64,000 nt of DNA, taken from positions 5,952,001 to 6,016,000 of the forward strand of contig NC_090340.1 of NCBI RefSeq assembly GCF_035084215.1, written 5' to 3'. The translations under genes and the position numbers were made by a program. The notes below the pieces were generated by a model that was not told the DNA's origin, searched no databases, and saw nothing but the letters and a program-made list of their open reading frames with translations. Positions 11,264 through 47,214 of the stretch are shown here, in pieces (position 1 is the stretch's first letter; the number at the start of each line of letters is the position of its first letter). Origin of the DNA: Heptranchias perlo. Taxonomy: Eukaryota.

Positions 11264-11346
11264 CCATAAAATGAGTCTGATTTCAAATGGTCCACAATGA
11301 GGGTGTTCCCCATCAGAATCACCGCTAAACCCAACAGGAAACGACA
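11264..11346 (-). pseudogene. Decayed mirror copy of the TM exon
   Basis: Reads CRFLLGLAVILMGNTLIVDHLKSDSFY then GG|gtaag. Clearly homologous to 23239-23321, but the original acceptor AG is mutated and about 23 bp of the exon 5' end is deleted. Confidence 0.8.
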
Positions 11347-11784
11347 CTGATGGAGCGAGGTGGGGAGCAATAGGATAGAAATTTAAACGAGCATGATGAA
11401 AAAATGCAGAGAGAGAGCGAGTGGTAGACAGAGAGTTAACTGAAGATCATAAATGTGTTGGATACAAGGGCTGTGTGTTTAAAGGTTTATTTCGAAGGAG
11501 CTTCAGTTTCAGTGAGATTAGATCACAGGCATTAACGGACCACCGAAACTGATCTACAAACAAACAGATTCAACACCGTGACCGCTCAGTTCTTTGCTAA
11601 GAGCACCCAGCCTTTCTGCAAATTAAACGCTCCGGAAACCATCAACTAGTCTGAGAACACGTAACGGCATCACCTCTATGCGGTGTCCTGATAGTAAACC
11701 ATTTTAGCCCGTCTATCCCAGAACAACCAATATCCTTATAGCCATCATCACTGATATCACCTCCTGTCTGCCTTTAACGTGTCA

Positions 11785-16201: not shown

Positions 16202-16256
16202 ATGTCTATACGTGATGTTTTGCGATACCTCTCAGCTGTGGCCATTATTTGCACAG
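16202..16256 (+). CDS. Exon 1 (signal peptide) of VJ-C1-TM Ig-superfamily receptor
   Basis: ATG at 16202 reads MSIRDVLRYLSAVAIICT then G|gtttat (phase-1 donor, somewhat weak); lies 191 nt upstream of the V exon and splices in frame. Confidence 0.7.
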
Positions 16257-16447: not shown

Positions 16448-16777
16448 TTCTGACAGTTATTAATGGGACCGCTCTCACAGTGACTCAGCTCCCTGCCCGC
16501 CTGACTCCGGTGAAAGGCACAAATGTCTCCATGTATTGCTCTGTGCCCCGCTTCGATCACAACGCAATGGTGGATGTTTACTGGCGGAGATCCGGCCAGG
16601 ACGGGATTTTGGATTCGAGTGCAGACAAAAGGAAAACATTTAAACCATTGAAGAAAGGATCTGCCGAGTTTCACCTGCTGAATGTAGGTTTCCAGGACTC
16701 TGGAATCTATTATTGCAGCATGAGAGATTGGAGAGGAAAGATTTCCAACGGGAATGGGACTGAGCTTATTGTACATG
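16448..16777 (+). CDS. Exon 2: V-set Ig domain with germline-joined J-like strand
   Basis: Acceptor tttag| (an in-frame alternative gacag| gives 16457). Reads LTVTQ..NVSMYC..VYWRR..FHLLNVGFQDSGIYYC..GNGTELIVH; donor G|gtgagt, phase 1. Confidence 0.92.
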
Positions 16778-20038: not shown

Positions 20039-20320
20039 TGCCGCCAACTCCTGTGAAGATTACCCGCCTGCTCTCTCCGTCTCTCACACTCCTCTGTACA
20101 ACGGCTGCTTTTTTCCCCGAGGAGTTTAACCTCACTTGGTATCAAAATGGCTCCGAAATTAAATCTGGGATAAACACGGTGCAGACACGGAGCGAAGAGG
20201 GATTGTATCAAGTTTTCAGCTCCCTCATCTCTGTGCAGAGTGGGACGGTTTATATCTGCCGGGTGTCCCATGCCTCTCTCCCGGCTCCAGCTGACGACAG
20301 CTACACGGTTCGTGATCCGG
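20039..20320 (+). CDS. Exon 3: C1-set Ig constant domain
   Basis: Polypyrimidine tract plus ttccag| acceptor. Reads PPTPVKI..LTLLCTTAAFFPEEFNLTWYQNG..GLYQVFSSL..YICRVSHASL (CxxxxFFP, W, YxCxVxH); donor G|gtaag, phase 1. Confidence 0.92.
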
Positions 20321-23206: not shown

Positions 23207-23319
23207 CCTCCACAGACCGATTCCCAACCTTGAACTTCTGCCGTTTCCTGTTGGGGTTAATGGTGATTCTACTGGGAACCACCATCATTGTCGACCATTT
23301 GAAATCAGTCCCCTTTTAA
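23207..23319 (+). CDS. Exon 4: stalk, Arg-containing transmembrane helix and short tail, ending in stop
   Basis: Acceptor ccag|, phase 1, reads ASTDRFPTLNFCRFLLGLMVILLGTTIIVDHLKSVPF*. The four exons total 780 nt = 259 aa plus stop with no frameshift. Confidence 0.8.
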
Positions 23320-23539
23320 AGGTAAGATATTGATTTCTTGATTCAGATAATTTCCGTGGAATTATAGTAATCAAACACAGGAAACAAAATAATAGAATCC
23401 TTATTTTGCGACTTTAGATGTCTGGGTCGATTGTTTGCCTGGACATTGGCTGCCATTCATTCATCTTCACTTTCTTATCTATCCGAGTGTTCACAGCAAG
23501 AAAGGTAAACCATTTTACAGGGTGTAAAAGTGCCACTCA

Positions 23540-37239: not shown

Positions 37240-38233
37240 TTATTTTGTGATATGGGTTCCCAACACACTGTCCGGGTCCTTGAGCTCAACCTGCCCGTAC
37301 ACTGTGGTCTCCTCCTGCCCATACACTATGGTCTCCTCCTGCCCGTACACTATGGTCTCCCCCTGCCCGTACACTGTGGTCTCCTCCTGCCCGCACACTA
37401 TGGTCTCCTCCTGCCCATACAATATGGTCTCCTCCTGCCCATACACTATGGTCTCCTCCTGCCCATACAATATGGTCTCCTCCTGCCCATACACTATGGT
37501 CTCCTCCTGCCCGCACACTATGGTCTCCCCCTGCCCGTACACTGTGGTCTCCTCCTGCCCGTACACTATGGTCTCCTCCTGCCCGTACACTATGGTCTCC
37601 TTCTGCCCGTACACTATGGTCTCCTCCTGCCCATACACTATGGTCTCCTCCTGCCCGTACACTATGGTCTCCTCCTGCCCATACACTATGGTCTCCTCCT
37701 GCCCGTACACTATGGTCTCCTCCTGCCCGTACACTATGGTCTCCTCCTGCCCGTACACTATGGTCTCCTCCTGCCCATACACTATGGTCTCCTCCTGCCC
37801 GTACACTATGGTCTCCTCCTGCCCGTACACTATGGTCTCCTCCTGCCCATACACTATGGTCTCCTCCTGCCCTTACACTATGGTCTCCTCCTGCCCGTAC
37901 ACTATGGTCTCCTCCTGCCCGTACACTATGGTCTCCTCCTGCCCATACACTATGGTCTCCTCCTGCCCTTACACTATGGTCTCCTCCTGCCCGTACACTA
38001 TGGTCTCCTCCTGCCCTTACACTATGGTCTCCTCCTGCCCGTACACTATGGTCTCCTCCTGCCCATACACTATGGTCTCCTCCTGCCCGTACACTATGGT
38101 CTCCTCCTGCCCGTACACTATGGTCTCCTCCTGCCCGTACACTATGGTCTCCTTCTGCCCGTACATATTCCTTCTGACCGACGAAATCTAGAGCACGGTA
38201 TATCACTTTTTCTTCAGCTCCCATTTGCGGAAT
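37240..38233 (-). pseudogene. Cytoplasmic ITIM/ITSM exon of the inhibitory-type paralog, interrupted by a minisatellite
   Basis: ctactacag|IPQMGAEEKVIYRALDF (ITIM VIYRAL at 38189-38206). The far end reads EETTVYGQVELKDPDSVLGTHITK* in a frame shifted by 1 nt. Lies 3.3 kb downstream of the TM exon on the same strand. Confidence 0.62.
37291..38166. repeat. 24-bp minisatellite, about 36 copies (GTACACTATGGTCTCCTCCTGCCC)
   Basis: Directly visible and highly homogeneous; explains the four overlapping repetitive ORFs. Confidence 0.98.
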
Positions 38234-38597
38234 CTGTAGTAGTGTTCAGAAATAATGTTAATATTCTGTCTTCACCAGTAAGTAGATTGCTAAATCACAC
38301 AATCTTGAATAGATCGGCAGAGGAAGAGGCAGCTGCGAACTGTGAGTACCGACCAGACCTTCTTTCACCCGCCTGCATACACTCGGTACACCTCAATTCT
38401 GAGCCATGCTGCCGCTTTCATCATGGTGTTCTGCCAATTTTCCAACGAAATTAAAATGAGAGACTGGAAGATTCCCATGAAATTTCACAGCCCATCTGTC
38501 CATGGTGAGTTTCAGTAAAATATTGTGGGGCTTTTTTCCCCAGAAACCTAATTGGCCCGCTGCACAGATTTTCTGATTTACAGAAGAGTCGACAATT

Positions 38598-41348
38598 CAT
38601 ACAATCATAGAATCATAGAAGTTTACAACATGGAAACAGGCCCTTCGGCCCAACATGTCCATGTCGCCCAGTTTATACCACTCAGCTTGTCCCAATTTCC
38701 TGCACTTGGCCCATATCCCTCTATACCCATCTTACCCATGTAACTGTCCAAATGCTTTTTAAAAGACAAAATTGTACCCGCCTCTACTACTGCCTCTGGC
38801 AGCTCGTTCCAGACACTCACCACCCTTTGAGTGAAAAAATTGCCCCTCTGGACCCTTTTGTATCTCTCCCCTCTCACCTTAAATCTATGCCCCCTCGTTA
38901 TAGACTCCCCTACCTTTGGGAAAAGATTTTGACTATCTACCTTATCTATGCCCTTCATTATTTTATAGACTTCTATAAGATCACCCCTTAACCTCCTACT
39001 CTCCAGGGAAAAAAGTCTCAGTCCATCCAACCTCTCCCTATAAGTCAAACCATCAAGTCCCGGTAGCATCCTAGTAAATCTTTTCTGCACTCTTTCTAGT
39101 TTAATAATATCCTTTCTATAACAGGGTGACCAGAACTGTACACAGTATTCCAAGTGTGGCCATACTAATGTCTTGTACAACTTCAACAAGACATCCCAAC
39201 TCCTGTATTCAATGTTCTGACCAATGAAACCAAGCATGCTGAATGCCTTCTTCACCATCCTATCCACCTGTGACTCCACTTTCAAGGAGCTATGAACCTG
39301 TACTCCTAGATCTCTTTGTTCTATAACTCTCCCCAACGCCCTACCATTAACGGAGTAGGTCCTGGCCCGATTCGATCAACCAAAATGCATCACCTCACAT
39401 TTATCTAAATTAAACTCTATCTGCCATTCATCGGCCCACTGGCCCAATTTATCAAGATCCGGTTGCAATCCTAGATAACATTTTTCACTGTCCACAATGC
39501 CACCAATCTTGGTGTCATCTGCAAACTTACTAACCATGCCTCCTAAATTCTCATCCAAATCATTAATATCAATAACAAATAACAGCGGACCCAGCACCGA
39601 TCCCTGAGGCACACCGCTGGTCACATGCCTCCAGTTTGAAAAACAACCCTCTACAACCACCCTCTGTCTTCTGTCGTCAATACAATTTTGTATCCAATTG
39701 GCTACCTCACCTTGGATCCCGTGGGATTTAACCTTATGTAACAACCTACCATGCGGTACCTTGTCAAAGGCTTTGCTAAAGTCCATGTAGACCACGTCTA
39801 CTGCACAGCCCTCATCTATCTTCTTGGTTACCCCTTCAAAAAACTCAATCAAATTCGTGAGACATGATTTTCCACTCACAAAACCATGCTGGCTGTACCT
39901 AATCAGTCCCTGCCTCTCCAAATGCCTGTAGATCCAGTCTCTCAGAATACCCTCTAACAACTTACCCACCACAGATGTCAGGCTCACCGGTCTGTAGTTC
40001 CCAGGCTTTTCCCTGCCGCCCTTCTTAAACAAAGGCACAACATTTGCTACCCTCCAATCTTCAGGCACCTCACCTGTAGCTGTCGATGATTCAAGTATCT
40101 CTGCGAGGGGACCCGCAATTTCCTCCCTAACCTCCCATAACGTCCTGGGATACATTTCATCAGGTCCCGGAGATTTATCTACCTTGATGCGCTTTAAGAC
40201 TTCCAGCACCTCCCTCTCTGTAATATGTACACTCCTCAAGACATCACTATTTATTTCCCCAAGTTCCCTAACATCCATGCCTTTCTCAACCGTAAATACC
40301 AATGTGAAATATTCATTTAGGATCTCACCCATCTCTTGTGGTTCCGCACATAGATGACCTTGTTGATCCTTAAGAGGCCCTACTCTCTCCCTGGTTACTC
40401 TTTTGCCCTTTATGTATTTGTAGAAGCTCTTTGGATTCTCCTTTGCCTTATCTGCCAAAGCAATCTCATGTCCCCTTTTTGCCCTCCTGATTTCTCTCTT
40501 AACTCTACTCCGGCAATCTCCATACTCTTCAAGGGATCCACTTGATCCCAGCTGCCTATGCATGTCATATGCCTCCTTCTTTTTTTTGACTAGGGCCACA
40601 ATCTCCCGAGTCATCCAAGGTTCCCTACTTCTACCAGCCTTTCCCTTCACTTTATAAGGAATGTGCTTACCCTGAACCCTGGTTAACACACTTTTGAAAG
40701 CCTCCCACTTACCAGACGTCCCTTTGCCTGCCAACAGACTCTCCCAATCAACTTCTGAAAGTTCCTGTCTAATACCATCAAAATTGGCCTTTCCCCAATT
40801 TAGAATTTTAACTTTTGGGCCAGACCTATCCTTCTCCATAGCTATCTTAAAACTAATGGAATTATGATCACTGGTCCCAAAGTGATCCCTCACTAACACT
40901 TCTGTCACCTGCCCTTCCTTATTTCCCAAGAGGAGGTCAAGTTTTGCCCCCTCTCTAGTCGGGCCATCCACATACTGAATGAGAAATTCCTCCTGAATAC
41001 ACTCAACAAATTTCTCTCCATCCAAGCCCCTAATGCTATGGCTGTCCCAGTCAATGTTGGGAAAGTTAAAGTCCCCTACTATTACCACCCTATTTTTCTT
41101 GCAGCTGTCTGTAATCTCCTTACATATTTGCTCCTCAATTTCCCGTTGACTATTTGGGGGTCTGTAGTACAATCCTATCAAAATGATCTATCCCTTCTTA
41201 TTTTTCAGTTCTACCCATATAGACTCAGTGGGCGAACCCTCGGATATATCCCCTCTCACTACTGCCGTGATGTTCTCCCTAATCAAGAACGCAACTCCCC
41301 CTCCTCTCTTACCTCCTGCTCTATCTTTCCTATAGCATCTGTACCCTG
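38598..41348 (-). mobile_element. Young CR1 LINE with 7-bp TSD GACAATT, inside the inhibitory-type paralog
   Basis: 601-aa plus 237-aa ORF2 pieces; CATAGAAT tail repeats; GACAATT at 38591-38597 and 41349-41355. Confidence 0.96.
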
Positions 41349-41491
41349 GACAATTGTTCGTAGGTCTGATCGAATCTGTTTATCTCGATTGGTAAAATTA
41401 TTATATTTTTCTTTTTTACAGTAATATTTTAGAGTAATATTTTGAAACGTGAAAACCAACACAAATAAACTAGAGAAAAGGGGGTGCTTAC

Positions 41492-41605
41492 CTTTGAATC
41501 TATGCAATTTCGGTAGTTTCACTGTGGTGTTCACCAGTACCAGAATTAACAGTCCAAACCCGAAACAGAGATACATCAACACGAGTGGAAAACCGCGATC
41601 GGTAT
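41492..41605 (-). CDS. Transmembrane exon of a paralogous inhibitory-type receptor (possibly pseudogenic)
   Basis: tattttgcag| ... G|gtaagc, 114 nt, phase 1-1. Reads DTDRGFPLVLMYLCFGFGLLILVLVNTTVKLPKLHRFK. Shares the TDR-FP start and ttYaaag|gtaag end with the 23207 exon, but has no charged TM residue. Confidence 0.72.
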
Positions 41606-42584
41606 CTGCAAAATACATAGAACTGATACTTAAAATTCCAATTGATCAGTAACAGGGATTCTGTTAGAAGTCTGAGACAGTGAATAATCTCGTTCTGATA
41701 GGGAAGGAAATGTAAGATTATAACGGAATAAAAGATATAAGCTCTGAAATTCCGCAGGGGCTGTTCCGGGGTTTCGCCACAACTTCGGCAGGAGATCAGC
41801 GGAACCCCCAGTGAAATGACATAGGCCCTAAAATTGTATAGCACCATTAATGGTCTCCCTATATAACTTCGGCAAGACATCGACAGCAGCCCCAAAGAAA
41901 TAATTTAGATGGCCATGTTTAGTTTTTGCTTCTCTGGTGTTTCCGCTAGTCTCCCGTCCGAATTCTGCCGCTGGTACAGTGGCACCTCATGCAATTTCAG
42001 GCCTATGGAACCTCCCTCACCTGTGATATTAAAGATTCTCTCTCCGTCTCCCCTCTTCTACTTCTGTCTCCTTCTCTTTCCCCTTTTGCTCTCTGTCCCT
42101 AAGTTCTGTTGGCTTCTCTCTCAACCATCTTCTGCTTTCTTCTCGGCATATATATTCTATCCTTGGAGGTCGGAGGTAGTGAGTGGCACACAGTGTTGTG
42201 AAAGATGAAAGAGTAACTAATGGCTCTAAGCTGTCGTATGGGAGGGGATACGGGGAAACTCTGGCCCTCAGTAGATTCATTATCTTCCTCTTCCCAATTA
42301 TTCATGATCACCCACCCACTCATTGCTCTAATGTTCCTATCTCTTCACCTTTCTACTGTCACCTTCCCTTCATATCACTCTTTACCCCGATCAATGTCCT
42401 ACCTCTTCCTTATTGAACTCTCCTCTCATGCTCTACATACTCCTGTCCACTTGCTCCCCTGTCAACCCCCTTAACTGTAATCCGCTATCCTCTTCGCCAG
42501 TTCTGCTCTCCCAATTATACATCTATTGTCTGTGTTCAGGATCTAAGGCATCCTTGCCCTTTGCCGGTTTCTCACTCTCTCGTA

Positions 42585-44145
42585 TCGGAATTCAAAGTAG
42601 GCAAATGTGACGTCATCTACTTTGGATCAAAAAAGGATAGGACAGGGTACTTTCGAAATGGTAAAAAGTTAAAAACAGTGGATGTCCAAAGGGACCTAGG
42701 GATTCAGGTACATAGATCATTGAAGTGTTGACCGGAAGTCACCGGTTAACGGTTTTGGCTTAGTACACAGAGGAAGAGTCAATTCTCTCTTAATTCTCAA
42801 TTCGCTTTATTAACGTTATTAGATCATGTACATACCGCTTATACATCTAGTTAGATATAGGCATGCAGTTTACAGCAGGTTATACAGTTTTATACTCAAA
42901 CTAGGATTTAAACGCACACACACTAGGTTTTTCTGACGAACACCCCCCCCAAGTGGTCACAGAATAGAAAGGATATTATATTACCCGAAAAGGAGAGATA
43001 CTGCTGGCCAGGCAATTCTCTTTCTCACTCCTTACGTCGTCTCTATGTCCCTGATGTAGTCCCTACGTCGGGTTCCCACTTCCACGATGGTTAGTCTCCG
43101 GAGTCTCCCTCAAAAACACACTGGGACCAAGCCAGCAATTCTTCAGTTTTATTCCCAAGTCTGTCTTTTCGAATGATGCTGTCTTCTCTGGTTGGCTTAA
43201 TGTTGCTGGAGTGATCGATGTCATCCCCTGATTGGCTCTGTTCCAAGGGCCTAGGGAGCATCACCTCAGACCCCTTTTCTAAATAAGGACTGGTGTCCCA
43301 TCACAGTTCCTTTGTCCCTGTAAGAAGCGGAACGAATTCAAACCGGTTCTGGCCAGTTCAGACCAGTGACTGAACTCCAGGTCACCTCAGTTCGAAAGGT
43401 CAGTGTCTTTGTTAGCAATTCGAATTAACCTCATTAGGTTTCTGCAGCCTCTGGCCAACAGAAGTGTCATGAACAGGTGCAGAAAATAATCAAGAAGGCT
43501 AATGGAATGCTGGCCTTTATATCTCGAGGACTAGAGTACAAGGTGGCAGAAGTTATGCTGCAGCTATACAAAACCCTGGTTAGACCGCACCTGGAGTACT
43601 GTGAGCAGTTCTGGGCACCGCACCTTCGGAAGGACATATTGGCCTTGGAGGGAGTGCAGCATAGGTTTACTAGAATGATACCCGGACTTCAAGGGTTAAG
43701 TTACGAGGAGAGATTACACAAATTGGGGTTGTATTCTCTGGAGTTTCGAAGGTTAAGGGGTGATCTGATCGAAGTTTATAAGATATTAAGGGGAACGGAT
43801 AGGGTGGATAGAGAGAAACTATTTCCACTGGTTGGGGATTCTAGGAGTAGGGGGCACAGTCTAAAAATTAGAGCCAGACCTTTCAGGAGCGAGATTAGAA
43901 AACATTTCTACACACAAAGGGTGGTAGAAGTTTAGAACTCTCTTCCGCAAACGGCAATTGATACTAGCTCAATTGCTAAATTTAAATCTGAGATCAATAG
44001 CTTTTTGGCAACCAAAGGTATTAAGGGATATGGGCCAAAGGCAGGTATATGGAGTTAGATCACAGATCAGCCATGATCTTATCAAATGGCGGAGCAGGCA
44101 CGAGGGGTTGAATGGCCTACTCCTGTTCCTATGTTCCTATATTCC
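42585..44145 (+). mobile_element. CR1 3' portion (same young subfamily as 27097-28611), split by a solo LTR
   Basis: Near-identical to 27800-28610 on both sides of the insertion. Confidence 0.95.
42726..43460 (-). mobile_element. Solo LTR, 735 bp, 4-bp TSD GAAG
   Basis: TGTTGACC...GGCCAACA termini, GAAG at 42722-42725 and 43461-43464, and AATAAA on the - strand near 42808; removing it restores the CR1 sequence. Confidence 0.9.
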
Positions 44146-46444
44146 TATGCAGTCCCTTCCTCTTACTTTCCTTGGTAGAATATGCGTTTGGTTTGAAAAG
44201 TGAACTTTTGATGTTGAAAGAAATCAAATTAGAATGAGAAAAGTCATTGGTTGTCTGCATCTCTCTCTCTCTCTCTCTGTCTCTGGCAATAATTTTAACT
44301 TTTATTTCTGGGCAAAAAATGAATGATCGTGAATCGGCAGCCCGTTTTTCACCTCGTCCAATTTTCTGCCACTTTGCTCTTTTTTGACAGGTGATGAAGG
44401 TTATTCTGCGCACCTGGGACTCACTTGTGTTCGCAAGTAGAATTTCTGTCTTGCCTCTGTGAGAAATTAGCACTTACTTTTATGCCTGTCAAGAAAACAT
44501 AAGCCACAGATAAGACAATTAGATGACTCAAAATTGAACTCGGTATTTTTTTTGAAGAAGATTGAATTAATATTAACCTGAAGACTGAATATAACTCTGT
44601 CTTTTGTCCTTCCCCTATCTCTCGCTGCCTCGTTTGCCTTTTCTCTCTCAATCTCTGACATAAGTCTTCCACTCTCACTATCTGTTCCTCAGCTTAATAT
44701 ACTTTCTAAACTTTATGGAAGACGAAACAAAAACTATTACCGGTGTGCAATCATACGACTTGTGTAATATTCTCTCTCACACAGTCACATACACACAAAA
44801 CAGGTCAGATTTTTCTTCAGCACTGAATATAACCTTTTTCAGAGAAAATATTGTAACATTTAGCCTTTTTTGAGGATTAATCAACTGTTGACTAAATGAT
44901 ACTGACACACTGCAGGTGCTCAGACTGCATAACCCAAGTTCAGCTCAGAAAGTGACAGCGTTGGGAAAATTATCAGGTCCATGTTTAGACTTTTGAGGGA
45001 GGCTGAAGCATTTAAGTAATATCTTAATGAAAGAAATCAAAGTTAGAAAGGACAATTCAATGGATGAATTTATCATGCTATTAAATATATAAACATTTGA
45101 ATGTTCGATCTTCTATACTCTCTTATTTTGCACATTAGTTATTTCAACTGCTGCATAAAAAATTGTAGATCAAAAGTCTTCCGCTGAAACATGTTGACAA
45201 ATACATTTGAGTGGATGCTGTGGAAAATTATTTGGTGACCAGCCTGCTATTACGGGCTCATGTTTACATCGGGAAAACCCTAGTTTCCGCGGCCCATCCC
45301 CAGAAATTATGGCGGACGAGCGGGCGAAGTCCGTGTAAATTAATCTCATTGCAATTCTAGATATAGGAACAGGTAGTGCTGAAGAGTTGACAAAAAATGT
45401 GACAAAATATGGCAACAGCAAGTAAGGCTTTTATTTGACAGGAAGTACACAAGACATGATAGTCGTGAATTTCTTTTGGTGCTGCCCCCATCTACTGCTG
45501 TAACTTCGGCGGGAAATCAGCAGAACCGGGGAGACGGTCAAAAACAGCCCTTGTCAGCCCTTTTCATCCACTTTTCTCCAAATGTTCCACCAATCTCCCA
45601 TCGATGTTTGAGCACCAGACCGGGCCAAATCCCTCAGAAATCCATGGCCAACATTTTAATCAAGAAACGGAATAAAAGGCTGAAGTCACTGAATAGTTAA
45701 ACGATTAACAATTGATTACAATAACTGTTATTCATACCTTCTCATTAAGTGAAGTGTTTCATTTGTATTGTTTCGATTTGTACCAGTGATGGTGAAAGAT
45801 TTCACTCTTTCTGGCGGTGTATTCCCGGGGTGTATTCCTGCAACTTTAATTAAATTTATAACAGAAGTGCCTATCAACAGGCAAATTTAAGACTGCGTTT
45901 ATCAATAATGTTGGTAAAACTTCTAGTGCGAATAATTCAGCCATGCTACAAAAATTGGGCGCGAATAATATACACACCGCCAAAATCATTTTGTTATATA
46001 TGCTGTAATTCTGGAACATGGTTAAATTACAGTTAAGGAAATGTTTCTATGCAACTGAAACGTTTCCCTCATTTGCACAGTAATGAAAATAAAATAAATA
46101 AATAAATCTGTTACCAGCCTTCACGAACGATGCCAGCGTCCTGAAGGGTTTAAACAATAATCCCAGTTTCCAGGATGGCCTGGTCGTTAAACGCATCGTC
46201 CCGCAAAGCGCTGAATACAAAAGGGCAGCATTGTCGTGCTAGGTTGTCCCGCTCATCCGCTTGAACTTTGGCGAACAATTCCGGAATCCTCGAACAAACG
46301 GCCTAAACTGCCGCGGAAGTTGTAGGCCATAGGACCTAAATTAGCGGGGAAGAGGAAGGGGGGACTCCGTCCAGAGATTCGTAAAATCGCCGCGCAATTT
46401 AAGAACCAAACAGGTCAAAAATTCAAAGGTTAGTGGATTTCCCG

Positions 46445-46850
46445 TATGTGGGATATGGACGTCAATGGCAAAGCCCGGCATTTACTGCCCATTCCTAGTT
46501 GCCCTTGCGAATGTGGTTGTAGGCCGCCTTTGTAACAGTTTGATAAAACAGAATGGCTTTCGAAGCCGCTTCAGCGGCAGTTAAGAGTCAATCACGTTTG
46601 TGTGGGACTGGAGTCGCATATAGGCCAGACTGGGGAAGGACAATTGGTTTCCTTCCATACAGGACAGTAGTTACCAGTTCAGTTTTCAGGACAACCAGAC
46701 AGCTTCATGTTCGCTTTTACTGATACCAGTTTTTTATTTAATATTTTTTAAAGTAAACTCAATTCGCAAACTACCGCGGTGGTATCTGAACTCTCGTTCT
46801 CTGCATTATTAGTCCAGGTCTCTGGATTACTGGACCAGTATCATAGTCAC
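46445..46850 (-). mobile_element. Old non-LTR-derived repeat related to the element at 62158-62840
   Basis: Shared terminus GCATTTA.TGCCCATTCCTAGTTGCCCTTG. Confidence 0.6.
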
Positions 46851-47214
46851 TGCACTGCAATCGCTGGTGTATTTGATTTCATTCCTCCTCCTAAAAGGCA
46901 TTACCCCATATAACTCCTAATTATAATGAGGTCCTGCGGTTAAATCCTGCAGGACCTCCGCGTCCTCGGCCTTACTGGGTTTCCCCGCACTAATGTGATC
47001 CCCCACAACCTCTTCACCTCCCCATAAATACCGGGGCCGAGAACTGTACGGTGGACATTCCATTTCTATATCCTGGAATCTGCTCGCAGTTGAACGGTAC
47101 ATTGCCAGCCCAAGCTTAAGCTCGTAAGAGCGGTGCATCTGCTTAAGTGAGGACAAGCAAACACTGTTGGGAAAAGCGTGAACTATAACCTTTATTGATC
47201 TGCTTTTTGATCAT

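Follow-up and report, generated by a model that had tools for sequence, protein, structure and literature searches.

A truncated inhibitory-type remnant at the end of a shark V-C1 gene cluster with predicted activating and inhibitory members

Introduction

Does a minus-strand piece of the shark Heptranchias perlo genome, with a transmembrane (TM) exon and tyrosine motifs, encode the inhibitory partner of a nearby activating-type receptor gene? The original prediction, made from the window (the whole 64,000-nucleotide stretch of contig C18, 5952001-6016000, that was analyzed), held that the VJ-C1 receptors here form a paired family arranged tail-to-tail. We find that the flagged segment is very probably what remains of an inhibitory-type V-C1 gene, truncated, frameshifted and likely a pseudogene, and that it closes a cluster of some 90 shark genes that likely work as paired activating/inhibitory receptors. 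Debris of this sort is usual in gene families. The interest lies in the family: little is known of innate-type receptors, inhibitory or activating, in sharks, and non-rearranging VJ-C1 genes are of the kind proposed as precursors of antibodies and T-cell receptors.

Exons of the remnant

The predicted minus-strand TM exon was recovered as described: it is flanked by AG and GT, runs from phase 1 to phase 1, encodes the expected peptide and is the sole strong TM-exon candidate on that strand in a scan of the window (Table 1). Its proposed likeness to the TM exon of the plus-strand gene beats shuffled sequences (protein 66/5000; DNA 2/2000) but is a likeness at the level of the family only, ranking 10th among 32 family TM exons. 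Four additional copies of the exon are found on contig C18. In the TM tree it clusters with two complete paralogs (support 100/99), not with the Arg-TM gene of the window.

The acceptor, VIYRAL and TVYGQV are also all present, but the two motifs lie in different frames with a 24-bp array between them, which the original prediction had missed, and hence do not form the single ITIM+ITSM tail that had been proposed. Read in the tyrosine frame, the array has three TAA stops in 36 units; the VIYRAL frame reads (RAGGDHSV)n. A direct splice from the TM exon to the tail terminates after 6 residues because the tail exon begins in phase 0. The ITIM pattern by itself is frequent, with 138 matches in the six frames of the window, and the tail exon can be taken as genuine by homology, not by motif.

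Table 1. Features of the window, in window positions
Feature	Position	Strand	Details
Second orphan, degenerate Arg-type TM exon	11269..11367	-	without V/C1; altered acceptor
Leader exon, activating-type gene (P0001)	16202..16256	+	
V exon with joined J-like end, activating-type gene	16448..16777	+	
C1-set exon, activating-type gene	20039..20320	+	
Arg-containing TM exon, activating-type gene, with D-H motif and stop codon	23207..23321	+	
Last tail exon	37240..38233	-	phase-0 acceptor at 38233; ancestral stop 37242-37240; broken by frameshift and array
TVYGQV, ITSM pattern	37288..37305	-	out of frame with VIYRAL, behind stops
Tandem array	37290..38165	-	24 bp x 36.5, grown from second-tyrosine motif
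Frameshift	38161..38170	-	at array start; 8 nt shorter than in-frame sister copy
VIYRAL, ITIM pattern	38189..38206	-	homologous to LSYCAV/LNYCAV of complete paralogs
LINE, 5'-truncated	38597..41349	-	2753 nt, in TM-tail intron; 7-bp target-site duplication; absent from sister copies
Orphan TM exon, inhibitory type	41492..41605	-	114 nt; uncharged core; polar changes N/T/T/P
Remnant intron	41606..46929	-	colinear up to about 46450 with the C1-TM intron of the complete paralogs; beyond this, match to their V-C1 intron

Complete paralogs and sister copies

Paralogs joining this TM exon to V, C1 and tail exons had been anticipated, and two complete ones lie on the plus strand of C18 at 3.156-3.179 and 3.205-3.244 Mb. 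Both carry V and C1 exons and this TM exon, followed by a middle exon (LTYATL) and a last exon in which two ITIM patterns occur. The V of these parents is about 33% identical to that of the plus-strand gene in the window, which places them in a separate subfamily; their own Arg-type relative is found at 3.079 Mb. The flagged piece belongs to this other subfamily, is truncated and frameshifted, and is not the partner of the plus-strand gene. One parent has a GT-to-CT change in its TM donor, both are without the 44-nt exon of inhibitory-type genes and the acceptor of the middle exon is weak; both may themselves be decaying. A weak match to the 44-nt exon in one parent was discarded, its donor being missing in the other. 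A protein search with the parent tail gave no match, and the parent V had no close relative among the best 150 of 294 matches to cluster representatives; the exon chain of the parents is therefore without annotation or RNA support. The V domains of this subfamily (L017:4725-5039, L012:5661-5975 and L070:267-581) lack the first conserved Cys and carry a Cys in the J-like motif (DGCG), and their disulfide may differ.

Two sister remnants, at 4.04 and 4.87 Mb, have neither the frameshift nor the LINE, which we take to be CR1-like, but their array, of about 13 units, contains a TAG. The 514-nt intron of the sister matches separate blocks of the parent's 23-kb TM-tail region, with the middle ITIM exon skipped, and is a collapsed form of that region. 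The 44-nt exon was not found in the sister intron, though its profile gave 30 matches in the DNA examined, 27 of them at E<0.05. From the window remnant, the middle tail exon, V and C1 are all absent. A reading of the conserved intron block 38597-38456 as a middle exon was rejected.

The segment is probably a pseudogene remnant older than the block duplications. The blocks at about 3.46-4.04 and 4.26-4.87 Mb are near-identical, and represent either a very recent duplication or one haplotype assembled twice. That the lesions or the duplicated blocks are assembly artefacts is very unlikely. Errors are common in tandem arrays, and the copies at 4.04 and 4.87 Mb, with 1 difference in 1.4 kb at the remnant, may be haplotypes; but neither the 8-nt indel, nor the two missing exons, nor a LINE bounded by a target-site duplication would be a typical error, and the missing exons are common to the copies examined.

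Between the window and sister remnants, silent to replacement changes number 0:3 in the TM exon and 0:4 at the tail end, which are small numbers. The 5' tail of the remnant diverges from the sister copy more than the intron does (98.1% identity in the intron) and has residues in common with another orphan tail at 5.717 Mb. This divergence, and the retention in all three duplicated blocks of the remnant and its intact TM splice sites, would suit continued transcription of the remnant, whether into a non-coding or antisense RNA that converges on the activating gene or into the message for a short TM peptide, or else a role as gene-conversion donor. We give this little credence, since no promoter or leader was identified for the remnant, its changes are mostly replacements and the recent block duplication explains the retention. 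When contigs of four runs were aligned to the sister remnant, its TM and tail exons were left uncovered, although such contigs cannot show absence. The orphan tail at 5.717 Mb (L009:1577-1738; C18 5717152-5717316, plus strand) is of the same subfamily; this last-tail exon contains two TAA stops, and a search upstream of it gave no TM exon.

The missing ectodomain

The failure to find V and C1 exons on the minus strand at 41.6-64 kb was confirmed, and profile searches found none on that strand in the whole window or in the 40 kb beyond it. A profile search of 39 kb upstream of the 4.87 Mb copy likewise gave no minus-strand V or C1, and genome searches gave no V between 5.97 and 14.5 Mb on C18. 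Truncation and a very long intron had both been offered as explanations; truncation stands, but a long intron does not, as the nearest minus-strand V found upstream is at 14.5 Mb, more than 8 Mb away. A deletion of the C1 exon is suggested at the junction near 46.45 kb, where the match to the paralogs changes introns, but the 46.45-46.86 kb part of that match is a repeat, which leaves the junction no more than suggestive.

It is extremely improbable that the segment is a working convergent inhibitory gene whose tail combines ITIM and ITSM and whose V and C1 lie far upstream. The remnant TM exon retains good splice sites, and in the complete paralogs this TM is part of V-C1-tail genes; against this, the motifs are out of frame, stops are present, the frame-converting exon is missing, no minus-strand V was found at 5.99-14.5 Mb and homology to the parental introns is lost about 5 kb upstream of the TM exon, short of C1. 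The evidence points instead to a truncated remnant.

The V-C1 gene cluster

About 90 V-C1 genes lie on C18, which holds 93 of 94 V matches and 103 of 114 C1 matches (lower bounds; a few matches are split pieces), mostly at 2.7-6.0 and 14.5-15.6 Mb. The window remnant sits at the end of the cluster. A single divergent V-C1 gene (L091, C18 19.02-19.03 Mb) is located outside both clusters. Among the 44 intact V exons classified, of about 93 and from targeted stretches, 20 are followed by tails, 9 by an uncharged TM only and 9 by an Arg TM, with 6 left unassigned; the tree excludes V exons that have stops or fall below 90 residues.

Intact inhibitory-type genes are built of leader, V, C1, uncharged TM, a phase-converting 44-nt exon and two tyrosine-motif exons, whereas activating-type genes terminate in an Arg TM exon with a short tail. 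In several genes the motifs of the first tail exon match the ITIM pattern only loosely (for example PSYAAI in P0003). The family genes have one C1 each, their second domain matching C1-set best in Pfam.

The activating-type gene of the window encodes a protein identical to P0001 (259 aa). Just past its TM stop, at window positions 23316-23327 on the plus strand, a splice donor is retained where inhibitory TM exons splice to the tail. In the 4.85 Mb copy of the activating TM exon (L026:6548-6662) the stop codon is lost and the frame reads on to the donor. The second orphan TM exon of the window, of Arg type, has copies at C18 3.944 and 4.781 Mb.

Splicing of the V-C1 genes

Alignment to the 5.904 Mb gene gave joints between all successive exons from V onward (V-C1, C1-TM, TM-44nt, 44nt-tail1 and tail1-tail2) in 4/4 runs, as assembled contigs from one sample of one study, the runs being presumed to be RNA. 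The V-C1, TM-44nt, 44nt-tail1 and tail1-tail2 joints are GT-AG, and exon-skipping joints fit spliced RNA. Variant letters place the TM-tail contigs with the 5.936 Mb gene (P0003), and one V-C1 contig fits the plus-strand gene of the window, with 6 of 7 C1 differences explained. As judged by gene anatomy and splicing, the paired V-C1 system is real.

Proposed exchange of ectodomains between the two types

That the VJ-C1 receptors form an activating/inhibitory family was borne out by the cluster itself, by the presence of both TM/tail types and by near-identical ectodomains. The tail-to-tail arrangement was not: the partners of the Arg-TM gene are in tandem, head-to-tail, 32 and 64 kb upstream (V 93.5% and 99.0% identical, respectively). 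At the DNA level, the plus-strand gene and the inhibitory gene at 5.904 Mb are 99.0% identical in V, against 84.2% in the stretch before V and 73.6% after C1. This ITIM gene, which lies 64 kb upstream, and its ITIM neighbor are 91.9% identical after C1, yet only 93.5% in V. Three of the six cross-type pairs compared have V identities of 99.0%, 99.7% and 99.0%, the other three 88-93.5%. Such a mosaic of identity would fit gene conversion or crossing-over.

To account for the activating label, the V tree requires 9 changes across 9 genes, whose V domains are scattered among the inhibitory-type ones. The TM tree requires 1 change (support 97/95; 0/500 shuffles), although the labels rest partly on TM profiles and the TM clade is therefore partly circular. 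All 11 Arg-TM exons examined are in one clade and all 11 carry the Arg and the D/N-H motif. The nine separate positions in the V tree are as would be expected from repeated ectodomain exchange.

Comparison with known receptor families

In bony fish, the NITR genes encode V-domain receptors of both inhibitory and activating form and make up a large cluster. Their second domain is I-type; that of the shark genes is C1-set by Pfam. KIR, LILR, CD300A/C and Xenopus CEACAM resemble the shark family in forming gene clusters with near-identical ectodomains on ITIM tails or charged TMs. Unlike in these receptors, the shark ectodomain consists of one V with a joined J-like end and one C1-set domain, as in antigen receptors. 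Gene conversion and pseudogenes have been reported for CD300A/C (PMC12447643), and a 2014 survey did not find LRC-type C2 receptors in sharks (PMC4016189).

SIRP is like the shark family in having V and C1-set domains and both ITIM and activating forms. Several relatives bear automatic 'SIRP-like' names, and P0003 matches SIRP-alpha (E 2.6e-13); Ig heavy chains and UrIg2 score as well as SIRP-alpha, and SIRP is absent from the 55 matches of V alone. SIRP has a V plus two C1 domains, its activating form carries a TM Lys and the locus is linked to NSFL1C. The shark genes differ in having one C1, and an Arg near the outer end of the TM instead of Lys. SEP-domain matches, candidates for NSFL1C, were found on C22 and C3 and none on C18. 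The TM Lys of SIRP pairs with DAP12. A SIRP link to DAP12 appears in PMC12975943.

NCR3/NKp30 shares with the shark family a non-rearranging VJ-type domain and a TM Arg, which in NKp30 is described as binding the Asp of CD3-zeta or FcR-gamma (PMC6514059). According to the same source, mammalian NKp30 is a single V domain with no C1 (PMC6514059), whereas the shark family has a C1. NKp30 was not among the V matches. MHC class I gave 0 of 43 matches on C18, all being on high-numbered contigs. The family may overlap with the shark NCR3 subtypes.

PRARP has ITIM/ITSM tails, and P0003 is like it in joining VJ-C1 to an ITIM/ITSM tail; PRARP comprises a few genes and is not known to have an Arg-type partner. 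UrIg2 has nine C1 domains. A non-rearranging VJ-C1 build is described for tetrapod VJ-C1 genes and for shark UrIg/UrIg2 (PMC10751288, PMC12227049). PDB searches with the V sequences singled out no single family. A literature search returned no paper describing the shark family, although supplements of genome papers, or papers on shark NCR3, the primordial immune complex, B7H6, PRARP or UrIg, may name it.

Proposed mechanism and distribution

ITIMs recruit SHP-1/2, and the inhibitory members would do so through theirs. In the activating members, the TM Arg would engage the Asp of an adaptor of CD3-zeta type. CD3-zeta is the likely adaptor because FcR-gamma was not found in sharks according to the 2014 survey (PMC4016189) and the genome has a zeta-type TM with Asp (one strong exon, plus one weak match). 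Through gene conversion or unequal crossing-over, ectodomains would be re-matched again and again between the two types, and remnants like the flagged one would be by-products of this same turnover by birth and death of genes. Pairs with V 99% alike open direct tests of ligand, cell type and signalling.

When 7998 candidates were scored with the family profile, 33/33 matches came from cartilaginous fishes. Mobula has an Arg form (P0023) and ITIM forms (P0014 and P0015), Chiloscyllium an Arg form (P0028) and a partial uncharged-TM form (P0013), and the chimaera Callorhinchus ITIM forms (P0030-P0032). We tentatively suggest, as a reading that falls somewhat short of an even chance, that cartilaginous fishes possess a large undescribed family of VJ-C1 paired receptors, a counterpart of KIR/LILR, in which one old Arg-TM module signalling through CD3-zeta has repeatedly been re-matched to the ectodomains of ITIM partners, and that the family dates from the shark-chimaera ancestor. 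In other sharks, the annotated relatives P0007 and P0020 have two V-C1-TM units or a duplicated TM-tail, and represent fused gene models or exon duplications.
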